The translations under genes were made by a program, and so were the position numbers. 64,000 nt of DNA from Moniliella sp. 'wahieum' (lineage: Eukaryota): positions 124,001 to 188,000 of the forward strand of contig RSEE01000117.1 of assembly GCA_003971905.1 (NCBI GenBank), read 5' to 3'. The number at the start of each line of letters is the position of its first letter. Position 1 is the stretch's first letter. Below the pieces are notes generated by a model, which saw only the letters and a program-made list of their open reading frames with translations, searched no databases and was not told where the DNA came from. Positions 9,221-61,125 of the stretch are shown piece after piece.

Positions 9221-10441
9221 CTGGAACCCTTCCACGCTGGAGAGGGCAAATAATATCACCGATACTCTGGCTGCGGGTGGCTGGGAACGTGGCACGGGCC
9301 AGCTGATGTAAAAAGTGCACAGGCGTTTCCCACGGCAATATGGAGTAGAGATTAACTTGTGATGCTGGCTGAGCTGCTGAGCCGCTGAGGGTTGTTGGCC
9401 TGGGTTAGCATGTTAGCAGCTGGCGTATTTGTCTTTCGAAGACCCTGGCGAATGAGTGCTATGCCGACCGGGGTGTTGCGGTGTTGGCCATTCAATTTCA
9501 AACGAAGCTGGACGCCCCCCGACGAGGCTCTATAGCTGCCGCGGGCAAAAGGCTTGATAGGCTCGAGGCACCTCTACTGCCGGTGCACCGCCACACTGCT
9601 GGCGGTGACATACATATGGGGGCCCTGGATTATTTCGAAAGTCTTGTGCTTTGGGCTTTGGTGGCACCTCAGGCCTCGGGGCGCCTCTGTCTGCCTGCGT
9701 CTGCCCGTGGCAGAGGGTCGGAATATATATCTTTTGCCTCTGCCTCCGCTTGGCAGAACACACTCAGTGGGTGGCGTTTCGGCTTCTCTTGTCTCACCCT
9801 CCCCCATCCTCTGGTGCAAGGCACAGGGGGGACACTGCCCTTCCGCCAGTGCGCGGCAGAGCAGCCGGCACAGATGGAGCACCCCGCCAGTGTCCAATCT
9901 CGTTCGACCATGCACAGTGCCCCTCCCCTCACGCGTAGCAAGGAAGGGGAATGCAGCTTGCTTTCTCAGCCGCTCAGGCTCAGTGCTCAGTTGCTCAGTT
10001 GCTCAGCTTCTGGGCCGTTCATCTCCATCCCATCTCAGCTTGGGGTGCATTAGATACTCTGGCCTTCCAGCTGACATCGCTATAGCAGCAACCACGCTCC
10101 GTGGGTGGAGCGGACCACCGGGCTAGAGACTCATCGATGAGTAGTGTACAGCGACACGTGTTGTTGAACGTATATGGTACTAACCAATCCGACACTTGAC
10201 CGTATAATCCGCACAGCACTTTCTTCCTCTTTCTCCACCTCCACCAATTCAAAAGCGCTTCCAGTTCACGGTCGACGTTGTCGTTGGCCACGTTATCCTT
10301 CCACACATCTCTCGCCAGTCCGCTCCGCTCTCGTCTCGCATCCTCCTTCGACGAGACCAGATAAATCTCCTCGTTCTCCATTACTCTGCATTTTTAACAT
10401 CTTCCCATCTCCCTTTTTTCACTCCACTTGCCACGCACATC

Positions 10442-12219
10442 ATGTACGTTTGGCTTTTCCTTCCGTCCGGAGTTTTGGAGCTGTGCATACTGAACATTGA
10501 GATTCATTCTCCCTCTTTCGTGGTTTGCTCGGTTTTCATTCATACAACAGGCATTTGTGTAAGCTCAACTCCTCTCTTTGTTGGACTTTGGGCGAGGCGT
10601 AATTCTGACTGCTGTATCCGATTCGCATTGAAACAGACGGAGCAATCATATTTACCCAAGACAAAAACACCCACCGCATCCCTCTTCTGGCCGCATGGGA
10701 TCTGAGCCCTTTCAGCTGGCTGCGGAGGCAGCAGATGCAGGACCAAATGGCCTCTGATTCCAAGGTACGTGTGCCTCTCTTTCCGGGAAATGCGCCAGCA
10801 CATCTAATCTCACATGATATTCCTTTTTGCAGGAGTTGGCAGAGGCGACGCCACCCAACGGCCAAGTCCAGCTCGAATCCAGCGAATTTGTGGCCTTCTC
10901 TTCCGGCCGGCCAAGAGAAGATGAGCTGTGCGGGGTGATTGACGGATTCGGAGTACCCACGGGATGTAGCACTAGCTGTGCTGGACAAGATGCTGGAAGA
11001 AATGGTGGTGCGAGTGCCCAAAGCTCGGTACCAAGCCCGCATCGCCCAGCTAGTCAACTCAAACCCGACCGAGTTCATGGTAGACTATACGTCCGACGCC
11101 ACTCTGCCCACACCCAATAAGGCGCCTGAGCCAGAAGATTGGACTGGATGTATGCCACGTCTCGGTGATAAGGACATATTTGACCCAGTGCAAGCCGAAT
11201 TCCAACGGAGACAAGCTGAGGGCAATCGTGTAGGGATTGATGATCCTGTCCTTGTTGCCGCCTTGGAGTTCCCTTCAGCACAGGAGTACCTGACCCGCTA
11301 CCAAGACCTCAATTTGGCACGCGAGCTGGCCTTAAATCAGTTCGAGTCCCGTACCACGGGGGGGAGAGCGTTTGGCGTAGCCTCGGGGCGCAAGTTGATG
11401 GATAAGAAGCGATCGTTCCTAAGTTTGGGACGGCACTCTCCCCGAGTTCCTCCCACCGAGCACCCCGTACGGACGGTGCAGCATCAAGCATCTCTCGTCT
11501 CGACCGTGCCATCGCAAGTCAGTACGGCTGGCCTAAGCGAGGGCACGAGCTGGACCAGCGAAGCGCATTCGATCTCTGCCACGTCGGGAAACAAGGGCAC
11601 CGACACTCCTTCCACACGACCTAACACGCTCCCTGCTCCCAGCGCTGCTCCCGCAAGCGCTGGCACCGACACCCGTGCTCGAAGCACAACGGTCACGCTA
11701 GGTGGCGCAGTGCCTCCCCTTGAACATGGCACCGACTTGAAACCGCCCGAGACGGGGGTGCAAGAGAGTCTGAGTCAACTTCGCAAATTGCGGTCTTCTG
11801 CTACCTCAACCCCGGATGTGGACGGCAGCGAGCCCGAGACAGAGGAACAGGATGCACGGACACCCACGCCTTTGGCCGGGTATGGTGCCATTCGCGCTGC
11901 CCTCGCCTCCTCGCCCACCTCGAACCGCACCACCTCACGGCTCCAGACGCGCGCATCGCCTACGCCTCACAAGGAGAGCCCCGCACCGTTGCATCTGGAA
12001 CGGCGAATGCCCGTTGCTCCCATACTACCCATTGTAGAAGAACCCGGGAATAGTAGGCGCCCTGTCGACCCTACCCTGCCTCCTCCTAGTCCATCCTTGA
12101 TCATGGACAGGCGCGCCTCCCATCTCTCACGCAAGGTCCATGCTAGCTCGGGCCGGCTGGCCATGCCTGGTCGCAAGCGCTCGCACACGGAAGGGGACGA
12201 GAATTGCATTGTGATGTAA
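10442..12219 (+). CDS. Ykt6-like longin-domain protein lacking the SNARE motif, with C-terminal CaaX (CIVM)
   Basis: Exons 10442-10443, 10551-10558, 10637-10764, 10833-12219 (one indel near 10938) give MHLYGAIIFTQDKNTHRIPLLAAWDLSPFSWLRRQQMQDQMASDSKELAEATPPNGQ...LCGV-LTDSEYPRDVALAVLDKMLEEM...LEFPSAQEYLTRYQD. This is colinear with Ykt6 longin motifs (DLSxF, TDxEYPxRVA, YLxxYQD). The protein ends NCIVM*. Confidence 0.75.
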
Positions 12220-12855: not shown

Positions 12856-12936
12856 GGGGCGCTGCGGGCAGGCTCGCGTATACAATAAAGACGGCGCGGT
12901 GCAGGGCGCGTCCTGTGCTCTGCCCCCACCACCCCC

Positions 12937-15900
12937 ATGTCCTCTCGAGCGGCGCGTGCTTCGGCGCTGCAGGCGCTTGCTGCGCGGCGCAAGGGCCATG
13001 CGCTCCCCGTCAGCGACTCCGACGACGACGGCCGCATCTACGACGAGGTCTCCGAGGCCGAGTACAGCAGCTACGTCCGCGGCCGCGTCCTCGCCGACAC
13101 CTTCATCGAAGACGACGACGGCAGCGGCTATGTCGATCATGGCCAAGATGAGTGGGCCAGCGACGGCCCCGACAGCGACGAAGAGTACCGCCGCCACTTT
13201 GGCACCGGCAAGAAGAAGGCCAAGCGCGCCCTTCCTGAGCAGGGCGACTACTTTAGCTCCGCCCCCCGCCGCAAGAAGCCCGCCGCTCCTGCCCACAATC
13301 CCGCCGCTCGCGCCCGCACCCTGTTTGGCACGACCCCTGTCTCACACCACTCGAAGCAGGACGAGGAGGCGTTTATGAACAACATCCTCAACAATCTCGA
13401 TGCTCAGCCGGAGGAACCTGCTGCCCCCCTTCTGCGGCCCATCCAAGGCCAGAAGCGCACCCGCCCTCCTGAGTTTGGAGGATTCGAGCGCTTCCGCACC
13501 GCTCGGCGCGCTCCCGCTAGCCCCGCCAGCAGTTCCACTGGAATACCCAGCAGTGACCCCTTGATCGAAAGCCCACCCACGAACAAGCCCGCCCCGGGTG
13601 CGCATCATGCAGCCAGCACCGACGGACGACGATGAACTGAGCTGGCTCAATGAGGCCCCTGTCCCTTCCCTTCGTCCAGTGGCGAGCAAGCGGGCCAAAA
13701 CCCAAGATTCCCCCGCCGCATTGGACGTGGTAGCAGCTGCGATTCAGCCTAAGATTTCCGTCTTTGACGAGGACGACAGCGAGGATGAAGGGGTGCGCGC
13801 TGTGCAACCACAAAGCAAATTTGAGCGGGCCACCGCCCAGTCCCGTACCCCTATGACTAAGCCTGCTTCTGCTTCTGCTTCTCCCCCTGCTGCTGCTCCT
13901 GTTGCTCATCCGGGAACGGCGACGGCTGTACCAGCAAAGTTGGATATTGACTGGCGCCAGATCCATGAGGCGCTCATTATGGACGATGACGACTGGGAGG
14001 CCGACCTGATGGAGGAGGATGCAGCAATCGAGGCTCAGGCTAAGGCTCAGGCATCGGCACCGACACACACGACCCGCTCTCCGCCCTCCACCCGCGAAGA
14101 GAGACCCAATGACCGACGTTGCTTTGGGCGACCGCGAGAAGAAGGTGCGTGAGGCATACTATGAGTCCGATGGAGGCGTCTACTTTTACTGGCTGGACCA
14201 CTACGAACAAGGGGACAAGATCCATCTGATTGGCAAGCTTCGTTCCAAGACTACCCAGGAGTGGGAGAGTTGTTGCGTTACGGTCGAAGGCATGGAGCGG
14301 TGCTTGTATGTCCTGCCCAAGCAGGACCCTGCAAATCAAGGTATGTGTACCCCCTTTCCCACAAAGTTGTACAGTACTGACTCCACTCTAGATCTTGAGG
14401 CGGCCCGTAAGATCCGGGAGGACAAGCTGGCGCGTCGTGCTAAGACGCGTCGAGGCCAGAATGTCGACAACATTGAGATTGATGATGAGGAAGAACAGCC
14501 ATGGCAAGAGGAAGTGTTCGATGAGTTTGATGCGCTGCGATCCAAGTTTGGGATCAAGTCGTTCCTGTCCACCTGGGTGTTGCGGGACTATGCATTCGAA
14601 TTGCCCGACGTGCCACGACAGTCCCGATACCTCAAGGTCCGATATGGGTTTGACGAGACGCAACTTCCTTACGACTTGACGGGAGAGACGATTGCGCAGG
14701 CGTTGGGTATGGAGGAGGGTGAGGAGGGGTGAAAGTAAGATTGCCGTGTGTTGGTACGGGGTCATCGGCATTTGAGCTTTTCCTGCTGAAACGGCGGATT
14801 ATGGGTCCTTGCTGGCTCAAGCTCAACGATCCTACTCCCCGTTCCGTTCGGGGCCAACCCGTCCACACGGGCGACGAGGTTGTGAGTTGGTGCCAGACCG
14901 AGTTGTCCGTGGACGAACCCAAGGCTGTTTCGGTCGTCACGAGTTCAATGCCTGACGCCCCAACTGGTACACCCGCCGCTCAAGATCATGTCCTTGAGTG
15001 TGCGTACCGTCGTTAACTTTAAAGCGAACCAGCGGGAGGTGTTGTGCGCGTCGGCACGAACGTGGTCCGATTATGCACTGGAAGACAAGCCGGTCAATGG
15101 AAAGTTCGAAGATCGTCCATTTGACAAGCGTCCCTCCACGGTCAAGAGTTTTGTCCGACCTATTGGAGGGAGTTTTCCTGATGGGTTTGACAAGTTGGTC
15201 AGTCGGCGACGATCCAAGGTTGTGGCTGTCAATTACGAGCGTGGCCTGCTTAACGCCCTCCTCGCTCATATCCAGGGACAGGACCCTGATGTTATTGTGG
15301 GTCATGACATGATTGGGGTTTCTTTGGACGTGCTGCTGCACCGGATGCGGGAGCTCAAGTCGGACCAATGGTCACGCGTCGGTCGGATGCGGCGGCGAGC
15401 ATGGCCACAACTGACGGCGAACTCGGCTATCTATCTCATGGCCGGCCGGTTGCTGATGGACCTCTCTTCTGATTGTGGGAAGAGCATGATTGCCTCCACC
15501 TCTTGGTCGCTCACTGAGATGGCATCCACCCACCTTGGCGTCTTGCGCGACGAGATTGACCCCGACGAGACGGCGGGCGCGTTCCTGGATCCGGCCAAGA
15601 TCTGCCTCTTCCTCAGTCATAGCGAGATGGATACGTGGCTCGTCATGGCGATTGCTGCCAAGTTGCAAGTCCCGCTCACCAAGCAACTGACCAACATCGC
15701 CGGAAACAGTTGGAATCGGACTTTGAACCGGGGGCAGGGCCGAACGGAACGAGTACATTCTTCTCCATGACTTTTACGACAAGAAGTATGTGTTGCCCGA
15801 CAAGGTGACTGGCCGAGAGCGTATGCACGCCAAGCGCATCCGAGACAAGTTTGCCGTCCCCCAACCTAAGGCAGTGGCAACCCCCAAGGTCAAGCGCGAT

Positions 15901-17898
15901 AAGTTTAAGGGTGGCTTGGTCTTTGACCCCAAGCGTGGCCTGTGCGACAAATATGTACTGGTGATGGACTTTAACTCGCTGTACCCCTCCATCATCCAGG
16001 AGTTAACATCGACTTTACCACCGTTGAGCGGGTCAAGGGGGAGCCCAGGCCTGTTGAGAACCAAGAAGGGAAGAAGCCCAACCGGGGAAGAAGTTCCGGA
16101 AGTGCCTTCTTCAGATGTGGAGCAGGGTGTGCTTCCTGCACTCATTGCTACCCTAGTTGACAAACGCCGGGCCGTTAAAGGTTTGATGAAGGACAAGCGG
16201 GCCACCAAGGCACAGCTAGCCCAATGGAACGTCAAACAGCTCGCTCTCAAGTTGACTGCCAACAGTATGTATGGCTGTCTTGGGTTTGAGAACTCGCGCT
16301 TCTATGCCCGCCCCCTTGCGGCTTTGACCACTTTTAAAGGGCGTGAGATTTTGCGGCAAACTCGCGAACTCGCCGAAGGAATCTCTCTCGAGGTTATCTA
16401 TGGTGACACGGATTCCGTCATGATCAACACCAACAAGGTGACTTACGACGAGGCAATGCAGATTGGGCGTGAGTTCAAGAAAGCGGTCAACAAGCATTAC
16501 AAATTGCTGGAGATTGACATTGATGCCGTATTTGAGCGCATGCTCCTGCTCCAAAAGAAGAAGTACGCTGCTCTCAAGGTCGAGGACGATGGCTCCCGCA
16601 CCAAGGAGATCAAGGGCCTCGATATGAAACGTCGCGAATACTGCCAGCTTTCCAAGGACGCATCGAGGTACGTCTTCCTTACTATTTTCTCTCTTTTTCT
16701 TCGTATTGACTCGTGTATCCACAGCTCCGTCCTCTCCCAAATCCTCTCGGGCGAAGCGACAGAGACCGTGGTAGGTGAGATCCATGAGCTCCTCCGCACG
16801 TTGGCGACCGAGGTGCGTGAGGGCCGCAAGACACTCGATTCCTTCATCATCTACAAGCGCCTAGGCAAAAACCCTGAAGACTACCCCGACGCCAAGTCGC
16901 AGCCACACGTGCAAGTGGCGCTTCGGATGAAAGAGAAGGGGTTGTCCGCCCGGGCTGGGGATGTGATTCCTTACATCTTCACTGTTCCCGAGGGAGAGGA
17001 AGCGTCTACCAAGTCGGCGCAAGCGTCGCGTGCGCACCACCCAGACGACCTTCGTCGTGACGGCAGCTCACTCAAGGTGGATCTCGAGTATTATCTCTCG
17101 CTGCAGGTGCTTCCCCCATTGAACGTTTGTGCGAGAGCATCGAGGGTACGGATCGTGCCCGTTTGGCTGAATGTCTTGGACTTGATGTTCGCCGCTACAC
17201 TCAATCGAACGAGAAGGACGAGTCAGCAGCCCAGGGAGGCGCATTTGCTCCACTCGACAGCCAGCTCACCCCAGAGCAGCGATATGGGCACTGTGACAAG
17301 CTCACCTTCCACTGCCCATCTTGCAACGCGCGATACTGCCTTTGAGGGTCTGCTTGCCGCCTTCGCCAAGGAACAGCTTGTCTCGGGTCCGACGGTCGCA
17401 CCGGCCAATAGCGTGGGCATCCGCTGTTCAGGTTGCCAGCGAACCCTCGGACTGCCGTTGCTGGCGGTCCAGCTCAACCGTCGGATGCAGCAGCACATCA
17501 ATCGCTACTATGCTGGCTGGCGCGTGTGCACCGACTCGGGGTGTGGGCTGCGTTGCCGCCTACCGGGAGTGTACGCAATGCGCTGCCGTTCTCGCGGCTG
17601 CCCTGGGACTACAGTGGAGGAGTACACGGACAAGGACCTGTACACCCAGCTTTCGTACTACCAACATCTCTTTGATCTCACCACCGTGGCCAACTCCGCG
17701 GAGGCACACAGAGCCCCCGGCGCGGTGCTGCAGCTGCGCATGCGCCATGCCCGACTTGCCAAGGTGCTCTACACGACCGTCGACCGTATGCTCTCCCGCT
17801 CGGCGAGGCGGTACGTCGACATTGGCTCCCTTTTTGCTGGAATCACCCTTTCCGGCTCGGCGGCAGCACCCAAGCGGCCGGGCGTCGCGTTCGCGTAA
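12937..17898 (+). CDS. POL1: DNA polymerase alpha catalytic subunit (several indels; introns about 14341-14390 and 16668-16724)
   Basis: N-terminal IYDEVSEAEY...FIEDDDGSGYVDHG; family-B motifs DFNSLYPSII, KLTANSMYGCLG, YGDTDS; C-terminal Cys-rich zinc finger and YTDKDLYTQLSYY. Confidence 0.97.
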
Positions 17899-18139: not shown

Positions 18140-21100
18140 TCATACTAGTTTAGCGCTCTCAGTATCGAGTACGTCGCTCCTTGTGCTCGACATGGCCGCG
18201 CTTGGCTGCTGGTCAAACGCTTTGCGCTTGCGCGAAGCGTGTTTTTGGTGCTGCCGATGCGCCCGTCTCCTGGCTGCTTGAGCCGGGTCAGTGATGCTTT
18301 GCATCCGCACCGCATTCTTCCTCCCCCGGCGCTTGGCCTCAACCTTCTTGCGGAGATCGGCGAGGACAGTGGTAAATGCAGCTGCCCCAGCTTTACCCTG
18401 TGTTGCCTTCTGCAGCTCGCTCGCGGCCGCACGAATGTCCACTGCAATACTCAGGTCAGTTCCAATGCTTCTACGCGTGGGGTGGGACGTACTGTTCGAC
18501 TGCCAGTCCGATACTTTGAACGAAGCTTCGTCCAGGAAGAGCGAGGTGGGATGGATCAGGTGCGGCAAGTACCGTCCCACGTCCTCCTCAGAGATGGCTT
18601 GGAGTGCATCGAGTAGCGCCCCAAAGAGAACGACAGCCTGGCGAGAGATGTTGTCCTTGTCCGATCCAAAGCGGTTCCATTGAGGCAACAAGTTACGCAG
18701 TCCAAACGATAGCCGGCTGAACCACCAGGCCAGAGGGGACTTCCGATGCGCGTGGTGCGTCCTCTTGTTCGTCTCCTCGAGGGACTCGGGCTCTTCAACC
18801 TCTTCCTTCTCGCCTCCTCCGGGGCCTCGGGCTCTTCAGCCGCTTCCTTCTCCGCCTCCTTGGAATTGGTCTCGTCCTCGTCACTAGACTCTTCCATCTC
18901 ATCTTCGGTATCAGCCTCCACATCCGACTTTCCTCTTTTAGCTCCGTATCCTCCTCGGCATCCACCGTCGCACCACTCTTGTAAAGCAAGGTCGCGACCT
19001 GGGCCAAACACGTGCGGTAAACGCTACCCAGCTCTTGAGTCAAAAAGGGAGATGAGGGAGTGGGTGAGCATACGGGTAGCTTCCAGAGAGACGAGCTGAG
19101 CTGCTGAAAGAACCTGCTGCTTGGCCTGAACACCTTCATCGAGCGAAGCCAAGGCATCCGAGAGCAGGTGGGACAAGAAGGTACATGCCGTTTGGTCGAT
19201 GGAGCGAATGGGGCTCGCCACGCACAGCATCAATGCGTCCCACAGCTGCGATCCGGCAAACTGATGCAAGCTCGCAAGCGGCACACCTTGTCGCGGCCCC
19301 ACCGTCCCAATCAACACAAGGGCATGCGACGTGGCCAATGCTGCGTCGGGGTTGCCGGATTGTGCTTCCTCGGCCTCGGCGACCAGAGTGGCCGCCGCAC
19401 TGCGCAATGCCTGACCCAGCCATTCTGGCTGCTCCCCGGTGCGAGTTCTTGGCAGCAACGAGGTAGCAGAGCATCCCCAGCTTGGCCACATTGGGCTTGT
19501 CGGTCTGCTTGGCCCAGTTTTGGACGAGCAGGAGAAGCGTGGCAAACTTGTCCTCGGGCACAGCAGCCAACAGATCCTGCAGAAGCCTGGTCGACGTTTC
19601 CCGCACTTTGACGGAATCGTCGTTGGCAACTCGCATGACAAGGGCAATGAAGAGCGAGTCAATGGAGCCGGCTAATGCGCCCGCATTGAACTTGGCCACC
19701 ACAGCCCGCAGCAGTTCCAGCACTGACAGCCGGCCAGCCTCAAACTCATAGCTCAAGTTGCTGATGAGGAAGCTGAGTTGGTTGGCGTGTCGAGCCTTGC
19801 CGTGGGGGTAGTCCAACAGGAACTTGAGATAAAGCGCGGCAGGCGTCCCGTACATGCCCCGTCTGGTTGGTCACAAGCACCTTGGCCACTTCGTCCATCA
19901 CGTCGTAAATGATGGGCACTACGACCTGTTTGTCGAGCAAGACACGGAGCAAGGAAAACAGCGCCGATTGCACAGCCGGTTCTTCCAAGTCCGTCTTGGT
20001 CCATTCGAGCAGCTGGACCAGCTGTGCCTTCAGACCATGCTCTTGCTCATGCCTCATGTCGGGGATCTCCCGTAGCAAAGCACTGACCAACTTGAGTGCA
20101 AACTGAGATAGCTCAGCATGGAGGCCTCCATTGTGCTTGATCAGCTGCATCCCTTGATCGATCAGGACGTGCACCCGGGACTGGCCCTCCTCCCCGGCAG
20201 AGAGCGCCGGCAGATCCATCCGTGCAAAGGCCGTCATGGCCCGCAAGCTGCTTTCGACGATGGAGCTTTCAGAGGCGTATAGGGTGTTACCCACTGGATC
20301 GACAAGGCTGTTGAGACGGGAACGGTCCTCATCTTGGTCCAAATCCCATCGGCTCTTCTTGAGGTTGATCAGGAGGAGGTCCAAGCCGAGACTGACAAAA
20401 AAGTGCGCGTTCATAGACCAGGCCTCTTGAACCGAGGCATTATCCGACTCCACTTCCTTGCGCTTGCGCATCGTAATCAGGCTCGGTGCCGCTCCCGCTC
20501 CGCGTTCCACCCCTTTACCCGTAGGCACCGCTTCCTGGCTGAGGGAGGATGACTCCGTGATAAGCGAATAGCACAGCGTGGCCATCTCAGCTTTGCTGAT
20601 ATGCGTGTTCTCAGCTAGCCCAGAGGCCAGGTGGCGAAAAATGGTGTGGAATGTGGTCTTGACGTTGGGCATGGGCAGTTGCATCTGTTCTCGCAGAGGG
20701 AGAAGCAAGTCTCTTAAAGCTGGTCCCGCACAATACTTGGCCAAGAGTTCAACAGTGTTGATGCTCTTGCTCCGTTTCATCTCGCGCTGCTTGAGCTTGC
20801 CCTCGGCGGTCACTCGGTCTTCAGCCACCCGGCCAAACATGTCTTCCCTGGCAACCGACATGATGAGAGCTACCGTTTCGGGCGGGATAGGGAGTTGGGG
20901 GTCATGCTCGACAGAGTGGAACAGAATGTCATGCACAACAAATGCCGCGGTCGCCTTCTGCGCATCTCGCGTGAGCATAGTCTGCAGCGTCTGAACCATG
21001 GGGTAAAGGGCTTCCGGACCAAACGCATCTTGGACTTTGAGCAGCATCTCGCGTCCCATGTCCCGGGTTGTCTGCGCGCGGGCACGCAACACGTTGGCCA

Positions 21101-24100
21101 AGGAACGGTAAAGACGAATGGACATTTGCGCGCGCTCGTTAGACGGGAGTTTCTGCGCAATGTACACCACTCCCATCGCGATTGGAATCCGGGTGTCATC
21201 GTCGGATTCCTTGCCCGGTTCCATGTAGGCCAACAGGGTAGGGATCAACTTGCCCGTCACACGGGACAAAATCGTGGTCCGTGCTGCGCCCCCTGACTTG
21301 GCCACCGCTTTGGGTTCGTCCACGTCCATCTTGTCCTCCTTGTCTTCCTCCTCTTCCTTTCCTTGCGCCCTGCCCACCCGATTCATCGCCTGCATCATCC
21401 GTCAACTGGAAGGGGAAGCGTTGGAGAATGGCAACGATGAGCCTGACCATGATCCGCTCCTCCTTCGAGCGCTCCTTGACTTTGGACAGGTAGCCGGAGA
21501 GGAAGTGATAATAGGAGCGCCAGTCCAGCCCTGCCACAAGGCCGATAGAGCGTTGAGGGAAGAGTCGAGTAGGGCAGTAGCCCCCTCGGTGGCTTCAGTG
21601 AAAATCTTCCGCACGATGGGGAGGAGATATGCTTTGATTGCTGCAGGGGAGAAAAGGCGGGAGTCGGTGAAGCCGGCGAGACGGTTGAGGGCACGGTTGC
21701 GACGATGGTCTGGATATGATAGACGTTCTCGAAGAAGGATGCCTCGTCGTCCCCGTTGGCGCGCAGCGGACGCAGTTCGACCAATTCCGGAAAAAGTTCG
21801 ACCTTGTCCACAAGAGTGGAGAGGAGCCTGAGACCCTCAGTGCGCACCAATTCGTTGTTTGACACACCTGCTTTCTTGACTGCTGGAATGACGTATGCGA
21901 GGAGCAGGCGCGCCGCTTCGCTTTCCTCTCCCTCCTCCGCGGCAACGGCAATAAACTTGCGTAGAAGATTCGATGCGTTAGAGCGTACCGCCATATCATC
22001 ATCTTGCAAGAAGGTTGCTGCATTGGCCAGAAGAAGGAGCTGCTCAAACGTCTGCAACTCGGACCAGTCCAACTCATCAAGTTTGTCGAATGCGTCCAGA
22101 CGTCGATCAATGTCAATCTCGTCGAGGAGCTTGGGGTCGTACGCATTCAGGTCGCTCACCAGACTGGCAACGGGAGCCAGCTCTTCGTCCACCGCTGCCC
22201 AGGAGGACAAGGTGGTACACGCGGCAGTGCGCAGTGAGGGAAGACGAGCGTCCATGAATGTCTGGGCCAGAAGCGTGATGAAGGAGCCAGGCGAAAGGGC
22301 GTTGTTCGAGTCGAGTACCACCTTGTCCGTGGGCAACTTGGCCAGAAGACCAGAGAGGATAGATAGGACCTGAGCCTTCAGTCGTTCGTTACGACCCAAG
22401 CTTCCTGCTGTCACGAGGGCAACGAGCGCATCAAGAGAAGCGTTGCATCGGCCGCGTCAATCTCGAAGTTGGTGGCTAATTTGATGAGCTGTTGAGTGGC
22501 ACGGAGCAGAATCTGGTGCTTTCCCTCGGCCGCATGTTTGCCTTGGTTGGCACACCACGCTGCCACATCCCGGGTAAAGAGGGTAGCAACTGATCCCACC
22601 AACGCGGAAAGTACCACATCCCGGTCTGATTCGTCCTCGTCCGCTGCGGGCAGAGCAAGGTCAGTCAAATTCTCCATCACAGCCAGTACCGCCGAGGCCA
22701 CGGGCTCCTTGACCGCCGGCGCAGCAAGGAGCGCAAAAAGTTGCGGTAGAGTGGCCTCGTCGGCACCCAACCAGGATGCCAGCTCTGAGCTCTTAGACCA
22801 GGAGAGGAAGAGGGTGTGCAGCGCGCCCACCGAGTCAGCACCCTCGCGAGGCAGGTCCTTCAGTCGAGGGCTAACCAGCTCGGAAATGATGACTGGCTTG
22901 AAGGGCGACCAGTCGTACCGCATCTCATCCACTGGAAGCGTGAAGAGATCGTTGAGCCTGCGCAAGCCCAGCTGGCGAAGCGCACGTGGGCCGGAGCTCG
23001 CCCCTCCCTCGTCCTTGGCAATCGCGGCCGAACGGGCGGCTTGAACAGTAATAGTCACCACACAGACCGACCACCTCCTTCCAGTACGGGCCCAAACTGA
23101 GACGGAGGTAGCGCAGGACATCGGCCAGAGCCGCGAGGAAGCCGCGCTGCTGTCGTGGAGAGGCCCCCAATGGACTAGGAGACGGACGGAAGCTTCCTGC
23201 CGGCCCGTGAAATCAAGTTGGGCCACATCCGCCTTGAAAGGCACAGTCATCAAGTCAAAGAACGGTCGCAGTTCTTCCGGTAGACACCTGGCCAAGCTAT
23301 TAAGCATGGCGATCCTCCGCGACTTGTAGCCAGACTTATTGCGGCGGCCGGTGGTAGCCGTTATCTGGCCAAAAAAGATATGCTGAACGACGGGTAGGAG
23401 CATGCCACGGTGTGCCAGATCGATTTGCCCAGCGTCTGGGGCAAGGTCGAACTTGGCCAGCTCATCACGTTGGCTGCTTTTACCCAACAAGTTCTCCAGA
23501 GACTTGGTGTACGTCGTCAGCTCAATCTCGCGGTAGGCTAGGAGGGCAGCCAAAGCACCCATTTGCACTTCCGCGTCTTTAGCCGCACAGCTTTCGAGGA
23601 ACGCACTGCGCAGCTCAGACGAACGATCGACCTTGCGCAGGTGGGGCATGCGAGAGAAGACCTTGAGCAGAGATACGTAGGTGTTTGTCCTCTGCTTCTG
23701 CCCAAGTCCAGTCCAGAGGGTTTCATGCGGGGTAGCGTAGACAGACTCGACGAGGTCACCCTTGACTTGGAAAAGAGCTGAACCATGGGCTTGTTGTTCT
23801 GCTGAACGGCTTGAGGGATGAGAGCGAGAAGTGAAAGGATCTGCAGGCGGTAGTTGGTAGGTCAAGACGAGCCATCGGGGCGGACACTTCCGTAACTGAG
23901 TCCTCCGAAAGCGCAGCGTCGACGCTCTTCTCACGGGTGACGAGGAAGGGATCAACCCACTCCTTGGGAGGTTGGGGAATACCCGTCTCAGCAGGGAAAA
24001 GCTCTTGCGGAATCGCCGAATCGAGGGATGGGGTGGTTGGCGCCACTGGGCCTGCCATCTCGCGTGTTGGGGGAGGCGCAATGAGAGCCGGCGCGGTCAG

Positions 24101-27284: not shown

Positions 27285-29464
27285 ATGGCCAAGAAGGAAC
27301 TGCTGGCCTCCGACTCGTCCGACTCGGACGCCGAGGTGGGCTTACGATCAACAAGGAGTACGCCAAGAAGCACCAGCACCAGCAGGAGCTTGCCGAGCGG
27401 TTCCGTCTGGAGGCCAAGTACGGCAAGCAACCGCCGCAGACCTGTCCGAGTCCGAGTCCGACTCGGAGGAGGACGTGACGGAGGATGAAGACGGGGAGCA
27501 GGTCACGGCCGATGTGGATGCCGCCATCCTACGCACGCTCATCAAGATCCGAAGGGGCGACAAGGATGTGTACGACCCTTCTGTCCGCCTGTTCGATCGG
27601 GAGCGGCAGAGCCTTGGCCCTGCCCCGACCTCGGCCCAGCCTGCCCGAGGCAAAAAGCTCACGCTCGCCGCCATGCAGCGGGAGCGCTTCGCGAACTGGC
27701 GACAGATGAGGCGCATGCTGCTGAACGTCTGGCCGAGGCAAGCATCCACCCTAGCAAGCGTCTCGGAGATGAGGCCAAGCCGGCTCCGCCCACGCACGCA
27801 CAGGAGGAGGAGGCGCTGCGGCGTGAAACGCTCGCTGCCTTCCATGCGCCCCTGAGGATGAGGGAGAAGATGGGCTGTTCACCAAGCGCACTCATGAGGA
27901 AGGTGGGAGCTACCGTGACTATCTTCTTGAGGCCTTGGGGGGCGACAGGCCGCTGTCGATGCGGCGTTGAAAGAGCGCTCGAGGAAGCACAGCGGGTTAT
28001 TGTGCCTCTGGAATCCCGGGAGGGAGACGAGGAGTCCAGTGCGCCTGCTGCCAACCAGGCGGAGAAAGACCAGGAGTTCCTCATGAAAATACTTGAACGG
28101 GGGTGGGTGGAGAAGGCGCCTTCAGGGACTGGGATTGCTGAGCAGCCGAACTCGAGTCGGATGCGTCCTTGCCTCCCATGCGGACGAGTGGGAAAATGAG
28201 TTCAACATGCGGTATGAGAATGGGGACGGGACGGCGGTGCCCACGTTTAGCCGGAACGCGGCCGCTGTTAACTCGGTGCGGAGGGAGGAGAGCAAGCGCA
28301 AGCGTCAACGTGAGGAACGCAACGCTCGCAAAGCCGCCGAGAAGCAAGAGCGGATGCAGGAGATTGAACGTTTGCAGCATCTCAAACGCAAACAGATCCT
28401 TGAGCGGGTGGAACAGTTGCGTCTTGCCACTGGAAACCAGAACATTAATGTCGAAGATTTGGATCTCGAGGGTGAGTTTGACCCGAGCGCCCACGACAAG
28501 GCGATGGACAAGGCGTTTGACGAGGCGTATTATGAGGAGGAAGAGCCTGCGGAAGGAGGGCTCACGTTCGATGCCGATGGGAAACCGGTATGGGAGGACG
28601 ACATTGATATTGGGGACATTCTGCGGGAAGAGGAAGAGTACGAGCGTGCGCACACTACCTCAAGGAGCGCCGCCAGCAGGCCAAGGCGGACAAGAAGAGT
28701 AAGAAGGAGAGTAAAAAGGCGGGACAAACTGCCGCTGCGCTGGAGCCTGAGGGGGAGGGCTACGAGGGCGAAGACGAGCGTATCGAGATGGACGCTGACT
28801 TTGTCGGTAGTGCCGCACCTACGGGCGGATTCAGCGAACTTGTCCAAGAAGGAGCGCAAGAAGCTCAAGAAAAAGGCCAAGAAGGAAGAAAAGCAGGCCG
28901 CGCCAATCCCATCCAGAGGCAGGGGTGGATGAGGACGAGATGGATGCAGACCGTCATCCGTCCAAGCCCATGCCACAGACGGAGGAGGACCTCGCTGGCC
29001 TTTCCCCCGAGGAGAGGAAGAAGGCCATCAGCCGGATGCTGGATGAGTACTACCAGACCGGAGCGGAAGACGTGATTGGGGGCATGCCCACACGGTTCAA
29101 GTATGTGGAGGTACCCAAGGGTTCATATGGTATGTCGGCCGTTGAGATTCTGTTGGCGGACGATAAGGATTTGAACGAGGTGGTGGGCGTCAAGCATCTT
29201 CAACCCTACCGTCGCGAGATTGGCAAGTCGACCCGCCCCAGTTCCTCAGCCGCAAGCTGAAGGACTTCCGCCAAAACCTTGCGACGCGGTACGACGATGG
29301 CTCCGGTCTGGGGCGCCTTCTCTAAGGCCACCACCTCGACCCACAACGAGGACGAGGGTACGGGGGAGAAGAAGAAGCGCAAGGGAAAGAAACAGCGCGA
29401 GCTGGAGAAGAAGCGCAAGGCCGAGCAAGATGAAGCGCGGCCCGAGAAGAAGTCCAAGCACTAG
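27285..29464 (+). CDS. KRI1: KRI1-like 40S biogenesis protein
   Basis: INKEYAKK...EAKYG; EDEDGEQVTADVDAAILRTLIKIR; FNMRYE; FKYVEVPKGSYGMSAVEILLADDKDLNEVVGVKHLQPYR (Kri1 C-terminal motif). Confidence 0.93.
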
Positions 29465-29568: not shown

Positions 29569-32500
29569 CTACTGTCCGATCTGGGCGTGCATCCCATAGA
29601 CCACCTCACGCACCGCGACCAAGTCCTGACCTACATTACCCTCAACAATGATCTGGGGCCATGCTCCGACGCTTCGTCGCCACCAGCCTTGCGAATTGTC
29701 ACGGCCTCGGCCCGAGCCGAAGTACTGGTAGAACGGTTGTTGCGCCAGCCGGCGACCAAGAGTCCGTCTCCAGCAAACTCGGCCGGCACACGGGAACGAG
29801 CGAGACGTGCCTTGAGCGCAGAGAGACGTAGGTCCCCGATCAGCATCGTCGACGGCACTCGTGAAGGGGCCAGCTTGATTTGAACGCTGGACTCGTCCTT
29901 CTCCTCGTCCTTAACCTCAGAGGTAGTAGACGGCTTGGCGTCATCACCTGTGTCCTCTGGCTTTTCCTGCTTGGACGGTTGCTCCGCTCCCGCAGGAGAA
30001 GCAACCTTGGGTTCGGCGCTGTTTTCGCCTTCCCCCTTGTCCTCGGCCTTGTCATCAGTTTGTCCTCAGCTTTGTCCTCAGCCTTGTCCTCAGTCTTGTC
30101 CTCAGTCTTGTCCTCAGTCTTGTCCTCAGTCTTGTCCTCAGTCTTGTCCTCAGTCTTATCCTCAGTCTTTCCCTCCTTATCCTGAGCGGTCGGTTGGGGC
30201 TCGGCGGGGTTCTCAGCCTCTGTTCCTGCCGGCTCCTTATTCTCCTCGCCCTCTTGCACAGCTTCGTCATCTTCGATCCAAGCCAGGCTAGGCAGTCCAT
30301 TGGCGGGGTTGGTCCGGCCCACCCAGCGGGCGGTAAGACGAGCCAGTTCGTAGTCTTCAAACCTTGACCATTTGAGGTGGCCGAGAAGACGGTTCTGAAG
30401 GTTGACACTCAAGCTCTTGGTGAGGCCATCGTCGGCGCTGGTCGTGATCACCGTTTGGGCCCCAAGAGGAGGTGCCCAGATATGGTGTGTCATTCCCTTG
30501 ATGGCCAAAAGCGTGTCGCGCACTTCGGAGCGTGTAGACGCATCTCCACCAACCAAGACCAGTCGGCGCGGCTGCAGCTGCGGCAAGAGGTACGCCAACG
30601 CCTTGCCATCTCCCAGCCCAGCATTATCCACGTACCCCCTGGCACACGAGCCGGAGCGGACAATCGTACTGCGTCCCATACTTGGCCGGCGCAAACTTCT
30701 TCGCTCTGGCCTTGGCAGCGGCACGTTTGCGTTCTTCTTCTTCGCGTGCGCGCAGTCGTTCCAGCCGAGCCAGTTCGCGGCTATCGGTCGGCTGACCTGA
30801 CAGCTCCTCTGCCCGTTTGATCCAGCGCGACTTATCGATCAGTTCGCCGTACGCATCCATCCGCCTGCGTTTCTCCACGGTAGGTACCATGCGGTACCGG
30901 ACCCCTGCCGCGCCCCCCGCACGACCCGACCAAAAGGAGACAATCTTGCCGGCCTCACCACGAACATACACATCCGAAACCAGGTCCCGTACCGAATCCT
31001 TGACCAGCGCCTGACTTGCCCGCCGTTTCTGTGGCACGACACCCACCGACGGCTGGTCTAGGTCACCCGCCAATGGCTCTGGTGTCGCCTCACCCTCCGC
31101 GTCCGAACCGGACGAATCCGAGTCGGATGCTTCCTCCTCCTCCTTCTCTGCTTGCATCCGACGCCGGGAGCGAGCAACAAGCGAACGGCGCTGGGCTGCC
31201 TTGGCACGCGTTGCAGCCAGCGCTTCCTCGTACGCGGTCAGCTCAGCACCCCGCAACTTGATGCGAGAATACACGTCCACATGGAGCGTGAATTCGCTGG
31301 TTGGGACGGGAGCACCCAAGGGGGGAGGCACAGCGTCTGATCTGACTCGAGGGGCAGAGCCGAGTCCTGGCCTAAAGCCACTGGGTGCCTAACACGCCGC
31401 CCTTTCCCCACTTGGCTTCCGGTCGCTGCCGTTTCTTCCCATTCGTCCCAAAGCGCACGCAGGGGAGAGTGTGCTTCTCCCCGCGCAGTGAGCAGGATTA
31501 GGTCGCGGGTATCGCCAGCAGCTGAAAAGCGGGTGATGAGTTCCAGCGCGGGCCCATGGAAGCCAGATTGATGCACAGCCAGCACAACTTTCGGCAGACC
31601 GGGTGGCAGTTCTTCCTGCATTGCCGCCACGGAGGGGAACACGCGCACATTTCTAAAAAAAAAAAAAAGTCAGTTCTTTCTCTCTATCCACCCTGTGCAG
31701 GAAAGTGGAACGTACTTGAAATCCAGTGGAGACGACACAGCGTCCTTCTGGAGTTGGTGTTTGGACTTGGGTTTGCTCTCGTCGTGGCGGTCGGTTGATG
31801 CCCATTCCCTTGTAGTCCATTCCATCAGCGTCCGTGCCCGTTCCAGTGTTTCCGCTCCCGAGGGAGAGACGAAGCAAAGGTGAGGTCGGGGGCCCGGGGC
31901 ACCCCAAGCACGGTTGTCGTACGTGGTAGCCCAATGCTGGTCGAACAGCACGAGCAGCTCCAACGTCCGTGCCGAAGGGTCGACGGGAAGGATGACACTC
32001 CCACCTCGGTTGACGGCGTCGGTGACCCAGCCCAGCAATGCCGAGTCTCGCTCCTTGCGTTGAGGTTGGTGATCCGTCCTCGGCCGATTGAGGTGACGAG
32101 AACGTCGGCGCGGAAGAGCTCAGCGCCTTTGGAAGCATCTCCCGAGTGGGGCATGAGAGCAGCCCCATCCAAATGGCGCTCGCGGTTATGATTCCAGTCG
32201 AGAGCAAAGAGGATGGTGCCCTGATCGGGAGAGCGGAGTTTCCATAGAGCGCCACCCAGCGAGTGGCCCGCATTGTACGCCGTTAGCGTCGTTCCTGCCA
32301 GCCCGTCAGAAGAGAAGCGATGGGGCTGGAGGAATCGGAGCGCGGTGATATGATCAAATGTCTCGTCCACTTGTTGCTCCGTTGGCACACGCAGCCGTCG
32401 TCCACTCGCTGCTACACGTGTCCGCACCTCAGCCACGTGCACCCCTGCTGGATCGCGCTGGGCAGTGATGGTAGAAAGAGCCTGGGCATGGAGCCAGGCC

Positions 32501-33116
32501 TCCTCGGCGTCAGGGTCAACGTTCGGCCAGTGCGGGGGAACATCCTCCTTTTTCGCACTGAGCGCACCGGGTACGCCCGCTCAATGTCCAGTTCGTCGGC
32601 GACGCGCATCTCCAGGTCGACGTCGCGCTCGGCGCGGAGGGAGCGCACAGCAGAAAGAACAGTCATGCGGCCCATGGCCTGGGTGGCCATGGTGGAGAAG
32701 ATGGGGGCGGTGAGGCCAGCGTGGGCGCGTGCCCAGGCGAGGGTGCCAAGGTGGGCGAGGCTGCTGTGGGAGGGAGGACAAGGTCGATGGTGGGGGCGAT
32801 CTCGAGGAGGAGCTCGTCGAGGGGACGCTGGGCGGCATGGAGGATGCTCTCGGCGCCCTCCCAGCCGTGGGCGACGATGGGCGAAGGGGCGCTGGTGCTG
32901 GCGCGGGCAGCGCGCGCGCGGGTGCGGGGGTCGGCGGGGCGGCGGTGGGGCGGGCAAAGGAGAAGCACTCGGTGCCGCCGCAGCCGAGGAGGATGCGCGT
33001 GTCGTCGAGCTGGACGAGGTACGCGTACACCGCCGCCTGCTCGGCCTCGGCCTCGGGTGCGGCGCCGGGGCAGGCGCAGGTGCCCAGGGGCCGCTGAGCG
33101 GCGTGAGGGTGATCAT
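29569..33116 (-). CDS. CFT2: Cleavage and polyadenylation specificity factor subunit 2 (CPSF100, MBL/beta-CASP fold)
   Basis: MITLTPLSG; AYLVQLDDTRILLGCG; AYNAGHSLGGALWK; DWNHNRERHLDG; IGDLRLSALKARL...AEFAGDGLLV; C-terminal IVEGNVG...VREVVY. Intron about 31653-31716. Confidence 0.92.
30036..30170 (-). repeat. Coding 12-bp tandem repeat, (KTED)n, inside CPSF2
   Basis: (ttgtcctcagtc) repeated about 9-10 times. Confidence 0.9.
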
Positions 33117-33403
33117 CGGCGGTGGTGGTGGTGGTGGTGGTGGTGGTGCTTAGTGGGGGCCTCGATGGCGCTCACCGGTGGATGCGAGGGCAGCGGCTGA
33201 TGGTGTGTGTTACGTAATTCTTCTGCTACCAGGCTGGCGGATGAGGGTTTGGAGGTCCTGGTGGCAGCTGGTGGCTCCTCGTGGCTCCTCGTGGCTCCTC
33301 GTGGCGCCTGAGTGGGGCGGATGTTGCAGCCACACTAACCCCGCCCTTCTTCTTGCCTCGCACATTTGATCGCCCAACCAATCCCACCCAACCACCACCG
33401 CCC

Positions 33404-34446
33404 ATGTCTGCCGACACCCCCCAGCACCGCCTCCGCTACATCAAGAGCAGCACCGCCGCCCTCGTCTGCCCCAGCACCGCTGGCCAGGGCAAGGCCGGCG
33501 TCGAGCACGGCCCCAACGCGCTCATCGAGGCTGGCCTGCCTGCGCAGCTCGAGCAGCTTGGCTGGCACGTCGAGTTTGATGGCCACCAGGACTTTGCCAC
33601 GATTGCCACCCCCGAGTTCGTTGCCAGCGACACCGATCTCGACGGCATGAAGAAGCCCCGGACCGTGTCGGCGATCACCAAGCACGTGGCCGAGGTCGTT
33701 GCCGCCCACGCCACGCAGGGCAAGATTCCCGTCACGCTTGGTGGCGACCACAGTCTGGTGCGTTGCTCCCCCCGCTTCGTTTTGTCTGAGCTAACGCGCC
33801 AATGCGGCTGTTGCTAGGGTTTGGGCACTGTGCTTGGCACCCTCACTGCCCACCCCGACGCGGGCTTGATCTGGGTCGACGCTCATGCCGACATCAACAC
33901 GCCCAAGTCGACCGAGAGTGGCAACCTGCACGGCTGCCCCGTTTCCTTCCTGCTTGGGCTCAAGGACAGCCTGGTGCACCCGTTTGAGTGGCTGCCTGGT
34001 CCGGCAGGCAAGTTCCTCGACCCGAAGCGGCTCGTGTTTATTGGCCTACGGGATGTGGATGCGGGGGAGAAGCAGATCCTGCGCGAATACGGCATCAAGG
34101 CCTACTCGATGTTTGAGGTGGACAAGTATGGATTGGTGCGGTGGTGGACAAGGCGTTGGACTACCTCAACGACGGCGTGCAAGGCAAGCGTCAACGCCCC
34201 ATTCACCTCTCCTTTGATGTCGATGCCATGGACCCCACTGTCGCCGCCAGCACGGGGACCCCCGTTCGCGGAGGCCTCACCTTCCGCGAAGGCCATTTCA
34301 TCTGCGAGGCGCTGTACGAGACGGGCAATCTGGTTGCCATGGACATTATGGAGGTCAACCCTGCTCTTTCTCCCGAGAACGCAGAGGCAACCGTAGCGAT
34401 TGGCTGCTCCCTTGTCCGCGCTGCGTTGGGGGAGACGTTGCTCTAA
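33404..34446 (+). CDS. CAR1: Arginase (intron 33758-33817)
   Basis: [56 protein letters not shown]. Confidence 0.97.
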
Positions 34447-35941
34447 GGCTGAGCGCTGAGCCGCTGCGCGCTTACCGCAACCCGCGCTACCCCCCGCTTT
34501 ATCGGCCTCGCCTGCCCTTGTCCGTCATACTATTTGCAACAACTTGTCAAGTTCGCAATGCATTATCAAGTACTTGTCCACCACGTGTGCCGCTGGCCCG
34601 ATCCAATCCGGTTGGATGGGGGGTTGACGGCAGAACGGTGTTCGTATTCATACAACAACGTTTGAGGAGGCCACGAGAGGTGTGTGCTACGCAAACTAGA
34701 ACGAGATAGCATTTGCCAGGGACGTTTGATACCATTGCTGTCCCTATCGACTACCATCAGATCAAGCAGACCAGTAGACATTTTTGCTGTCACCATGTCA
34801 TTGACATCCCCCTGCCCTCGGACCAGACTGAGAATACTGCATGGCTACTGCACTGGCAGCCATCGATCTTGTGTCCGCTGTGGCACGATGAAAAGTAGTG
34901 CGAATGAGAGCGCAGCCTTCCTTGCACGCTGTGTCGATAGGCGGGTCGGGTGCCACGGGCGTGAGGTGTGCTGTGTGCTGGGTGGCGAGTCACTGGGGGT
35001 GTCGACGCAGGAGGAAGGTGGCGCAAGGGCGGGGCGGACGAGTGGATGGCCAAGGCAGGGCGACATGGATGGGGAGCGGGACGCGTTGGAGGGGAAGGCA
35101 GGTGTGCTGGGCCGGAGGGGCAGAGGCTGAGCCAGGAGAGTCGCAGTCCGCTGGCAGCTGTGGCCAGAGTGACTAGTGACCCGTGGCATGCGGCCGTACA
35201 CTCTAACTCAGGCGAATTATGGTGCGCATCAAAATGCGTGGGTTGCTAGGGTGTGGATTCGCTTGCCCCAGTCGCGCCGTCGTACGCACGTCCGTCCCAT
35301 CCCTCCTGGCGGTGGGCCCACCGCCGCCGCCTAGAGAGCAGCAGCGCCCTTCTTGCCCGCCAGATCCGGGCGCCACGCCACGCAACCAAGCGGGCAAGCG
35401 GACGAGTGGACGCACGCGTGGACCGTACTGGTAACGCCCACGACTGGGAGAGCAGCCGGCAGCGCGCTAGGCTGGCACTGTCTACTAGTACGCTTGGACG
35501 TCCCTCTGCCACTCAACCACGCTCCCCCTCCCTCGGCCTCATGGCGTCGCCATCGAGTATCCTATATCATCATCGCTTACTAGTTACTTCCCCGTTGCGA
35601 ATCCTGCCAGTTCCTGCATCCTGTACGACTGGCCCTACCCCCCCCCCCCAGGCACAACCTAGCACCCCCCCGCATCGTACACCGTACTAGACAGCCACTG
35701 TGCCTCCCCAAAGAAGAAGAGGTTCACAACCCCCGCCCTGCGCGTGATCCTACGAGGAACATGATCTGTGCCCAACCAGGCCAAATTAGCACACAGCCAT
35801 GTAAGACACCCACCCCCCGCTTGTCTCCCCAGCACATATCTTGCACGCTTGATCAGCCGCGCCCTCGTTTCCCTCTCTCCCTCTCTTCTTCCCTCTGCCC
35901 TCCCCACCACCACCCCTGCGCCTCGCTCCTACCTGCCCCGC

Positions 35942-57454: not shown

Positions 57455-57560
57455 TGCCACGTGGCCCGGCAGCAGCCAGGCACGGGCGCTGTGTGGACCG
57501 TCGGCCTGCGGGGGACGTTGGCGCTGCGCTGCGCCCCCCTCTGAAACAGGTGCCACGTCA
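57455..57560 (+). promoter_or_regulatory. Two UPRE-like TGCCACGT elements upstream of the bZIP gene
   Basis: TGCCACGTGG at 57455-57464 and TGCCACGTCA at 57551-57560. Confidence 0.55.

Positions 57561-61093: not shown

Positions 61094-61125
<32 letters not shown>

Follow-up and report, generated by a model that had tools for sequence, protein, structure and literature searches.

The window analyzed here, a 64,000 nucleotide (nt) stretch of contig RSEE01000117.1 from Moniliella sp. 'wahieum' in whose own coordinates all positions below are given, contains at 10442-12219 (+ strand) a four-exon gene with a spliced product of ~508 amino acids (aa), N-terminus MHLY, that appears to be a longin protein derived from the R-SNARE Ykt6, with a longin domain and a C-terminal prenylation signal and no SNARE motif. 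The in-frame MHLY... product is obtained by joining 10442-10443, 10551-10558, 10637-10764 and 10833-12219, with splice donors GTACGT, GTAAGC and GTACGT and acceptors ACAG, ACAG and GCAG for introns 1 to 3. Beginning from the 5' end (all features of the gene are on the + strand), a CT-rich stretch that may be leader or promoter (10200..10441) precedes an ATG in the context cacatcATG, with A at -3. This start codon is split: exon 1 (10442..10443) supplies its AT, immediately ahead of the donor (cat|GTACGT), and the G comes from exon 2 (10551..10558), a micro-exon of 8 nt that further encodes His, Leu and the first base of Tyr. Intron 1 (10444..10550, 107 nt, GTACGT...ACAG) is proposed from splice signals and homology only; intron 2 (10559..10636, 78 nt, GTAAGC...AACAG) and intron 3 (10765..10832, 68 nt, phase 0, GTACGT...TGCAG) carry branch-like elements (CTGAC and CTAAT, respectively) 25-28 nt before the acceptor, the distance in intron 2 being 28 nt. 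Without exons 1 and 2 the frame entering exon 3 holds no ATG. With them, four residues are added that prolong the alignment to canonical Ykt6 (MHLYGAIIF against MKIFGLLIF of Ceraceosorus bombacis Ykt6, P0027), so that MHLY falls opposite MKIF, where the beta1 strand begins.

The longin domain is encoded by exon 3 and the beginning of exon 4. Exon 3 (10637..10764) covers beta1-beta2-alpha1 (GAIIF...AAWDLSPFSW...MQDQMASDSK) and from 10639 onward reads GAIIFTQDKNTHRIPLLAAWDLSPFSWLRRQQMQDQMASDSK. Exon 4 opens in a first frame (10833..10940; ELAEATPP...LCGVI) with the end of alpha1 and then beta3-beta5, reading ELAEATPPNGQVQLESSEFVAFSSGRPREDELCGVI, which is 68% identical to residues 1-38 of P0004, an unannotated relative described below. 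Beyond a frame break discussed later, it continues in a second frame (10942..11031, TDSEYPRDVALAVLDKMLEEMVVRVPKARY) with the end of beta5 and then alpha2; the counterpart of this stretch in P0004 is covered by the Pfam Longin alignment and by alignments to Ykt6 in the PDB, and is modelled at a predicted local distance difference test score (pLDDT) of 71-86. The second frame belongs to a long open reading frame (ORF; 10939-12216, 426 codons) with LTDSEYPRDVALAVLDKMLEE at its start, FPSAQEYLTRYQD inside and GRKRSHTEGDENCIVM at its end, followed by TAA.

Between alpha2 and alpha3 lies a family-specific insert (11032..11268) with a conserved block, GCMPRLGD.D.FDPVQAEF.RR.AEG; in the P0004 model part of the insert is disordered and residues 128-138 form a helix. 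The distance from VPK to FP is 82 residues in the window and 30 in P0027, the nearest canonical Ykt6, giving an insert of ~50 aa. A previous description of this gene made from the letters of the window (hereafter the sequence-only reading) had put the insert at ~70 aa; the insert exists, but that size fits only a comparison with yeast or human Ykt6. Four of the nearest canonical Ykt6 fragments (P0008, P0009, P0011, P0015) have an extension of ~15 residues at this same place (..ITTGS..PSKGEG..), which yeast and human Ykt6 are not known to have, and the large insert may have grown from this pre-existing lineage-specific loop. After the insert come alpha3, which is the stretch FPSAQEYLTRYQD, and LARELALNQFESRTTGG, a short helix matched in the alignment by the extreme N-terminal end of the Ykt6 SNARE region (11269..11364 together); they correspond to the helices at 148-165 and 169-185 of the P0004 model.

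The remainder of the protein is a tail rich in S, T, P, R, A and G (11365..12168), whose equivalent in P0004 is modelled at pLDDT <50. Counted from the motif RTTGG the tail is 284 aa long and predicted to be disordered, in agreement with the disorder proposed by the sequence-only reading and slightly short of its ~300 aa. Embedded in it are islands conserved in all five lineages of the family: KKRSF (11404-11418), STRPNTL (11611-11631), TRARSTTVTLGG (11671-11706), VQESLSQLR (11758-11784), ARTPTP..AALAS (11854-11910), LHLERRMPV (11989-12015) and DRRAS (12106-12120). A basic patch with the motif RxRxxT (GRKRSHT) and an acidic stretch, EGDEN, follow (12169..12204), and the gene closes with the CaaX box (Cys-aliphatic-aliphatic-X) CIVM and its TAA stop (12205..12219), Asn standing before the Cys. 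Both GRKRS and the terminal NCIVM had been reported previously and are present in the sequence. When X is Met, a CaaX box favours farnesyltransferase.

Several comparisons support the derivation of the spliced, predicted protein from Ykt6. Its residues 1-124 can be aligned gap-free with C. bombacis Ykt6 P0027 (residues 7-130; 35% identity, 61% positives, pairwise expect value (E) 8e-29), and the N-terminus aligns to Tilletia horrida Ykt6 P0013 with a pairwise E of 1e-25; exon 3, taken by itself, shares 43-45% identity with canonical Ykt6 (P0011 residues 4-41, P0027 residues 11-52). The alignment to an annotated longin is thus colinear over the whole domain, the ..FP..YL.RYQD helix included, and the claim that the four exons splice to a Ykt6-colinear longin is borne out. 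A sequence search of the PDB with P0004 returned Ykt6 as the top five of eight matches (1h8m, 6j7f, 6j74, 3bw6, 3kyq; E 0.012-0.07), with a second short stretch, EFPSAQEYLSRYQD, aligned to the helix preceding the Ykt6 SNARE motif. The Pfam Longin profile (PF13774) matches part of its domain in P0004 with 21.5 bits (E 2.2e-4; gathering cut-off 26.2) and the window ORF piece P0001 with 11.6 bits.

An AlphaFold2 model of P0004, built from a 12-row alignment, has three strands and a long helix in residues 1-84 (pLDDT 71-86), the three helices mentioned above (128-138, 148-165, 169-185), and pLDDT <50 for 187-580; the modelled longin part corresponds to beta3-beta5, alpha2 and alpha3. Foldseek ranked Ykt6 structures first with this model (1h8m, 3kyq, 6j74, 3bw6, 6j7f), followed by the longins of Sec22b and Vamp7, at a root-mean-square deviation of 1.3-2.6 A over ~60-69 columns (best 1.3-1.8 A over 64 columns) and weak E of 0.015-0.3. 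No Foldseek match reached E<=0.001, in a 580-residue, mostly disordered model of which only ~64 residues can match. In the ESM Atlas, residues 1-215 of P0004 scored at best 0.85, to Longin clusters, which is below the level that the tool itself treats as more than a lead.

Intron 3 provides a further connection. In the canonical Ykt6 ORF fragment P0009, 20 unrelated in-frame residues are read exactly where intron 3 (10765..10832) would lie, between ..FMSK and TVAERT; in the canonical fragments P0008 and P0015 homology is lost just upstream of TVAERT; and P0004 begins MQ|ELAE, fitting the intron 3 end TTGCAG. Judged from this read-through, the position of intron 3 seems to be common to canonical Ykt6 genes and inherited from YKT6.

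Several features of Ykt6 are missing from the gene. P0001 and P0004 gave no match to the Pfam Synaptobrevin profile (PF00957) even with E allowed up to 10, and the region equivalent to the R-SNARE motif is predicted to be disordered, as the sequence-only reading had concluded in finding no R-SNARE helix; of the profile matches it anticipated, the missing Synaptobrevin is confirmed, but Longin on P0004 stays under its gathering score. Searching the 64 kb window by tblastn with full-length canonical Ykt6 (P0013, P0027) gave matches at 10636-11064 only, that is, no SNARE exon and no second Ykt6. Therefore the window holds no spare SNARE exon for an alternative isoform, and the splice form restoring a SNARE motif that would have overturned the earlier interpretation was looked for here and not found. 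At the C-terminus a single Cys replaces the two of Ykt6: the window ends N-CIVM, with Asn in place of the second Cys, and canonical relatives end SCCVII or SCCTII. In the alpha1 helix the window reads MASDSK against MAFMAK (P0027, P0011) and IMFMSK (P0013), so that Ser-Asp replaces Phe-Met and the hydrophobic Phe patch of Ykt6, whose conserved Phe we take to be yeast F42, is absent. These comparisons with P0027, P0013 and P0011 substantiate the earlier remarks on DQMASD and on the Asn. According to the passages of PMC2779197 that deal with Ykt6, its longin binds its own SNARE motif via a hydrophobic patch with a conserved Phe, mutation of which abolishes binding, and the relevant part of PMC12001115 describes two lipids on Ykt6, farnesyl and geranylgeranyl, the second on the neighbouring Cys.

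The gene is not a singleton. An exhaustive HMMER pass with P0004 as query over 1,835,955,588 representative proteins, at a threshold of E<=0.001, returned 16 proteins, 4 of them with this architecture (including the query) and 12 that are canonical Ykt6-like or fragments. The relatives are P0005 (779 aa, E 7e-75), P0006 (629 aa, E 1e-40) and P0007 (564 aa, E 5e-22). Word-index searches of a collection of 5.8 billion clusters returned the clusters of these four alone, as did a five-sequence profile compared with longer proteins; with the window ORF as query, whole or as residues 1-150, the word index returned P0004 only. The four clusters comprise 9 sequences, all from run assemblies, unannotated and called as intron-less ORFs. 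The orthologue search that the sequence-only reading had recommended has thus yielded four unannotated relatives sharing the architecture.

The five lineages (window and P0004-P0007) have in common the longin core, the helix FPSAQEYL.RYQD, the segment LA..LA..Q.E(S/T)RTTGG and seven islands in the tail, which in consensus form are KKRS(F/N), (P)R(R/P)(S/N)TL, R(A/I)RS(A/T)TV, VQ(E/A)SL, ARTP(T/S)P...A(V/I)R.ALA, E(R/K)R and GRKRxxT. All five are closed by an acidic stretch and then C[IVS][IV]M as the last four residues, the termini being N-CIVM, N-CVIM, G-CVVM and Q-CSVM, so that N, G or Q precedes the single Cys. The RxRxxT motif, 6-13 residues before this Cys, is present in four of the five lineages, P0005 having RKQALT instead. 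In a maximum-likelihood tree (18 rows, 163 columns, rooted on P0017) the five are a single clade (support 100/100) whose stem measures 2.05 substitutions per site. Variation within the clusters is suggestive only: all 7 variable sites of the P0004 cluster fall after residue 253, and in the P0007 cluster variants are spread along the protein. Taken as sequence evidence, these observations support a conserved family rather than a one-off decaying copy, and we regard both its architecture and its reality as quite likely.

The window copy is interrupted at 10938..10941, where the frame of 10833 (..CGVI) passes into that of 10939 (LTDSEYP) through two bases too few or one too many; the indel suspected near 10938 by the sequence-only reading is, as a frame change in the assembly, real. 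CGVI(L/F)(T/V)D is uninterrupted in each of the three orthologues whose sequence spans the site (ORFs of the P0007 cluster start at or after it and are uninformative). By comparison the L/F codon of the window is two bases short or, if the lineage of the window is one residue shorter, there is one base in excess. An intron at the break was rejected, as LCGVI and TDSEYP adjoin in all homologues and leave no room for one, and a programmed frameshift was set aside because the orthologues read through in a single frame.

If the frameshift were genuine, the gene would be a recent pseudogene in this organism, of a family functional in its relatives, and the protein would end after ~140 residues in the first frame. 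Against such decay, the 426 codons past the break are open and hold every conserved island and the CaaX box (by rough hand arithmetic from base composition, so many open codons would occur in random sequence with a chance of ~3e-7), and the terminal branch of the window is the shortest in the family (0.056), with no accelerated divergence. The quality of the assembly offers a control. Of the 112 stop-to-stop ORFs with 180 aa or more, 111 were compared with Pfam (the longin ORF was scanned separately), and two housekeeping genes among them change frame where an intron would not fit. In UTP20 (ORFs 18143-24096, - strand) the change is at 22438-22465: the UTP20_N profile is matched over 5-411 in ORF 22414-24096(-) and over 420-610 in ORF 21398-22456(-), positions 411 and 420 lying ~26 nt apart, and a single base seems to have been lost in the assembly. 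In the gene for aspartate aminotransferase (49837-51506, - strand) the change is at 50565-50568: its profile is matched over 7-129 and 132-183 on overlapping DNA, and relative to the yeast enzyme 1yaa the frame changes between residues 126-163 and residues 164-213, with no DNA intervening, which looks like the loss of one base in a short G or T run. Split families with room for introns (arginase, cyclin, DNA polymerase alpha, Lactamase_B_6) were left out of the count. Because of the orthologue read-through, these two breaks in the same 64 kb, the short branch and the open downstream codons, we judge an assembly indel to be the likely cause of the break and a pseudogene to be unlikely, even though a change of -2 or +1 is unlike the two apparent single-base losses of the control. 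The earlier concern over a true frameshift therefore stands as to the break and is answered, in probability, by assembly error, which would here mimic a pseudogene.

We propose that the gene represents a third independent origin of a non-SNARE longin, this one from Ykt6, and that its product may serve as a phosphorylation-switched, reversibly attached platform regulating a trafficking step in a small fungal clade; to this reading as a whole we assign a probability of roughly 0.45, somewhat under even odds. The explanation that we consider best, a real, lineage-restricted family arising by DNA-level duplication of an intron-containing YKT6, with the mechanism outlined below and an assembly error behind the frame break, is somewhat more probable than not. 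The duplication would probably have occurred in a basidiomycete lineage near Ustilaginomycotina, a placement whose sole basis is that the nearest named canonical Ykt6 are those of Tilletia and Ceraceosorus (Tilletia horrida, Ceraceosorus guamensis and C. bombacis are the only named organisms among them). In the copy, the longin domain would have survived complete, together with the CaaX box at the C-terminus; the R-SNARE helix, the second of the lipidated cysteines and the hydrophobic patch of alpha1 would have disappeared, and the alpha2-alpha3 insert and a disordered tail of ~280-400 aa would be new.

As to mechanism, the Cys of CIVM would be farnesylated, given X = Met, and processed. A single farnesyl beside acidic residues would give weak, reversible attachment to membrane or protein; it is because of those acidic residues and the missing second lipid site that we favour weak or regulated binding. 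The longin domain, on a long flexible tether, may act as a binding module for trafficking partners that is unable to enter a SNARE bundle, and it is probably constitutively exposed: with no SNARE core and, in the window, a polar alpha1 patch, auto-inhibition in the manner of Ykt6 is not anticipated. Basophilic kinases recognise RRxS/T and RxRxxS/T-hydrophobic, consensus motifs that four of the conserved tail islands fit, and we read RxRxxT, provisionally, as a kinase site. The basophilic motifs (KKRSF, RRSTL, RxRSxTV, and RxRxxT by the anchor) could accordingly be phosphorylation switches acting on attachment or on partner binding. They number 2-7 per sequence against 0.5-2 expected, and only P0005 and P0024 stand out from shuffles; with this enrichment weak, we place weight on aligned conservation of the motifs rather than on their counts. 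The specific mechanism of a phospho-switched, farnesyl-tethered longin platform is doubtful as yet and is put forward tentatively.

These proposals must be tempered by a number of points that weigh against them. The frame break is present in the only sequence available for the window, and requires a change of a kind (-2 or +1) that the UTP20 and aspartate aminotransferase breaks, apparently single-base losses, do not exemplify. Exons 1 and 2, with their split ATG and 8 nt exon, rest on splice signals and four similar residues, and intron 1 is without a CTRAY branch motif, making the 5' end the least certain part of the model. The Pfam Longin match is partial and under the gathering cut-off, and the PDB and Foldseek E-values are weak because the query is a partial longin domain. 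The clade attaches within an unresolved polytomy of basidiomycete-type Ykt6, so the tree does not fix its attachment point within Ykt6. Loss of the alpha1 Phe patch is seen in one lineage rather than five, the N-terminal exons coming from the window only. Finally, the basophilic motifs are at ~3-4x the shuffle mean and most per-sequence tests are unremarkable (in the window, 2 observed against 0.5 expected, a number reached by 98 of 1000 shuffles), and within the P0004 cluster two of the three near-identical members have Phe in place of the RRAS serine.

The protein might instead be a dominant decoy, a role that the sequence-only reading had put forward as possible: lacking a SNARE itself, the longin would inhibit Ykt6-dependent fusion by clamping, in trans, the SNARE core of canonical Ykt6 or by sequestering partners of the Ykt6 longin domain. 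A longin core well conserved with Ykt6 would suit this role, as would the binding of the Ykt6 longin to its own SNARE motif (PMC2779197, in the part cited above); yet the Phe-Met of alpha1 in the nearest canonical Ykt6 is Ser-Asp in the window, mutation of the Phe abolishes exactly that binding in the same account, and a decoy leaves the seven conserved tail islands and the conserved insert without a role. We consider it improbable.

Still less probable is that the gene is no extra copy and is the sole, highly divergent Ykt6 orthologue of its lineage. No second YKT6 lies within the 64 kb window, as that would predict, but the gene has no SNARE motif at all, Ykt6 is essential and near-universal in eukaryotes, canonical Ykt6 with a SNARE and CC-aaX ends occurs in the nearest named taxa (Tilletia, Ceraceosorus), and a stem of 2.05 substitutions per site is what a released duplicate would be expected to show. 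A gene-model artefact, in which a small longin gene was joined to an unrelated downstream disordered ORF, would fit the position of the join, which in the window is also that of the frame break, but is very improbable given that in P0004, P0005 and P0006 one uninterrupted ORF encodes everything from the longin beta-strands to the CaaX box, tail included.

On sequence grounds the protein is best described as a new Ykt6-derived variation on the non-SNARE longin theme, falling outside both Ykt6 and the phytolongins as these are defined. It resembles Ykt6 in a longin colinear from Met1 to the ..YQD helix, in its best sequence and fold matches, in ending with a CaaX box rather than a transmembrane helix and in an intron 3 at apparently the same position. 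It differs in having no R-SNARE motif, one Cys in place of the CC pair and Ser-Asp for Phe-Met in alpha1, and the family differs in ~50 additional aa between alpha2 and alpha3 and a disordered tail of 280-570 aa. Phytolongins, as portrayed in the sections of PMC2779197 devoted to them, are non-SNARE longins of land plants that derive from VAMP7, carry a transmembrane domain and in the view of those authors are unlikely to come from Ykt6; they are treated also in PMC4861013. Both groups combine a longin, a non-SNARE central region and a retained (here predicted) anchor, and both would stem from a duplicated longin R-SNARE. The fungal family, by contrast, appears Ykt6-derived and has a prenylation signal and a much longer, disordered central region; with best matches to Ykt6 rather than VAMP7 and a CaaX box rather than a transmembrane helix, it is an analogue of phytolongins and not a member, and the conceptual comparison with them drawn by the sequence-only reading is apt. 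A kinetoplastid longin-domain protein without a SNARE domain, closest to Sec22 in the portion of PMC5399786 concerned with it, is likewise a patchy, lineage-specific non-SNARE longin from an R-SNARE, with Sec22 as closest relative there and Ykt6 here.

The passages of a fungal SNARE survey that name Ykt6 (PMC2639358) present it only as a standard R-SNARE. Full-text literature searches, supplements lying outside their scope, found no Ykt6-derived non-SNARE longin family, consistent with the statement in the sequence-only reading that no such fungal family was known. The predicted anchor also invites comparison outside the longins. K-Ras4B (CVIM) is a singly farnesylated GTPase with a nearby basic cluster. 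The single CaaX box ending in Met (P0005 itself ends CVIM), the upstream basic cluster and the Ser/Thr between them, as a possible electrostatic switch, are similar; a basic patch of only 3-4 residues, the acidic stretch before the Cys and the lack of a GTPase domain are differences, and stable plasma-membrane binding is not expected.

If the proposed descent is correct, all three longin R-SNARE lineages (VAMP7, Sec22, Ykt6) have yielded non-fusogenic derivatives. Longins are general regulatory modules of membrane traffic, and families that shed the SNARE show what the domain does alone. This family would also constitute a natural experiment on Ykt6, a longin with a farnesyl signal but no SNARE core, in which the lipid is normally buried, and so is relevant to the unsettled matter of how Ykt6 moves back and forth between membranes and cytosol. 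It is limited to a few unannotated lineages, and it has been invisible to annotation: the relatives are all unannotated ORF fragments and the N-terminus lies in micro-exons.

The surroundings of the gene in the window are ordinary fungal housekeeping genes, with no trafficking genes near it among those recognised. Directly downstream (12889-17895, +) is the DNA polymerase alpha catalytic subunit in several ORF pieces (DNA_pol_alpha_N, DNA_pol_B_exo1, DNA_pol_B, zf-DNA_Pol). Further along are Kri1 (28087-28929); a CPSF-type metallo-beta-lactamase (Lactamase_B_6; 31828-33149, -) whose two ORFs overlap, as do their profile ranges (42-139 and 103-192), reflecting an indel or an intron; an arginase family gene (33245-34393), probably with a 60 nt intron; linker histone H1 (35584-36756); a Pho80-type cyclin (40250-41405); a staphylococcal-nuclease-domain protein (45152-45760); and a bZIP factor (57448-58392). 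The last part of the window (59000-64000) has a GC content of 0.65-0.70 and very long overlapping ORFs on both strands with Q/A/P/S-rich low complexity, including (AQ)n runs at ~60950-61250 and an ORF with an ARID domain (60938-64000) that runs off the window end.

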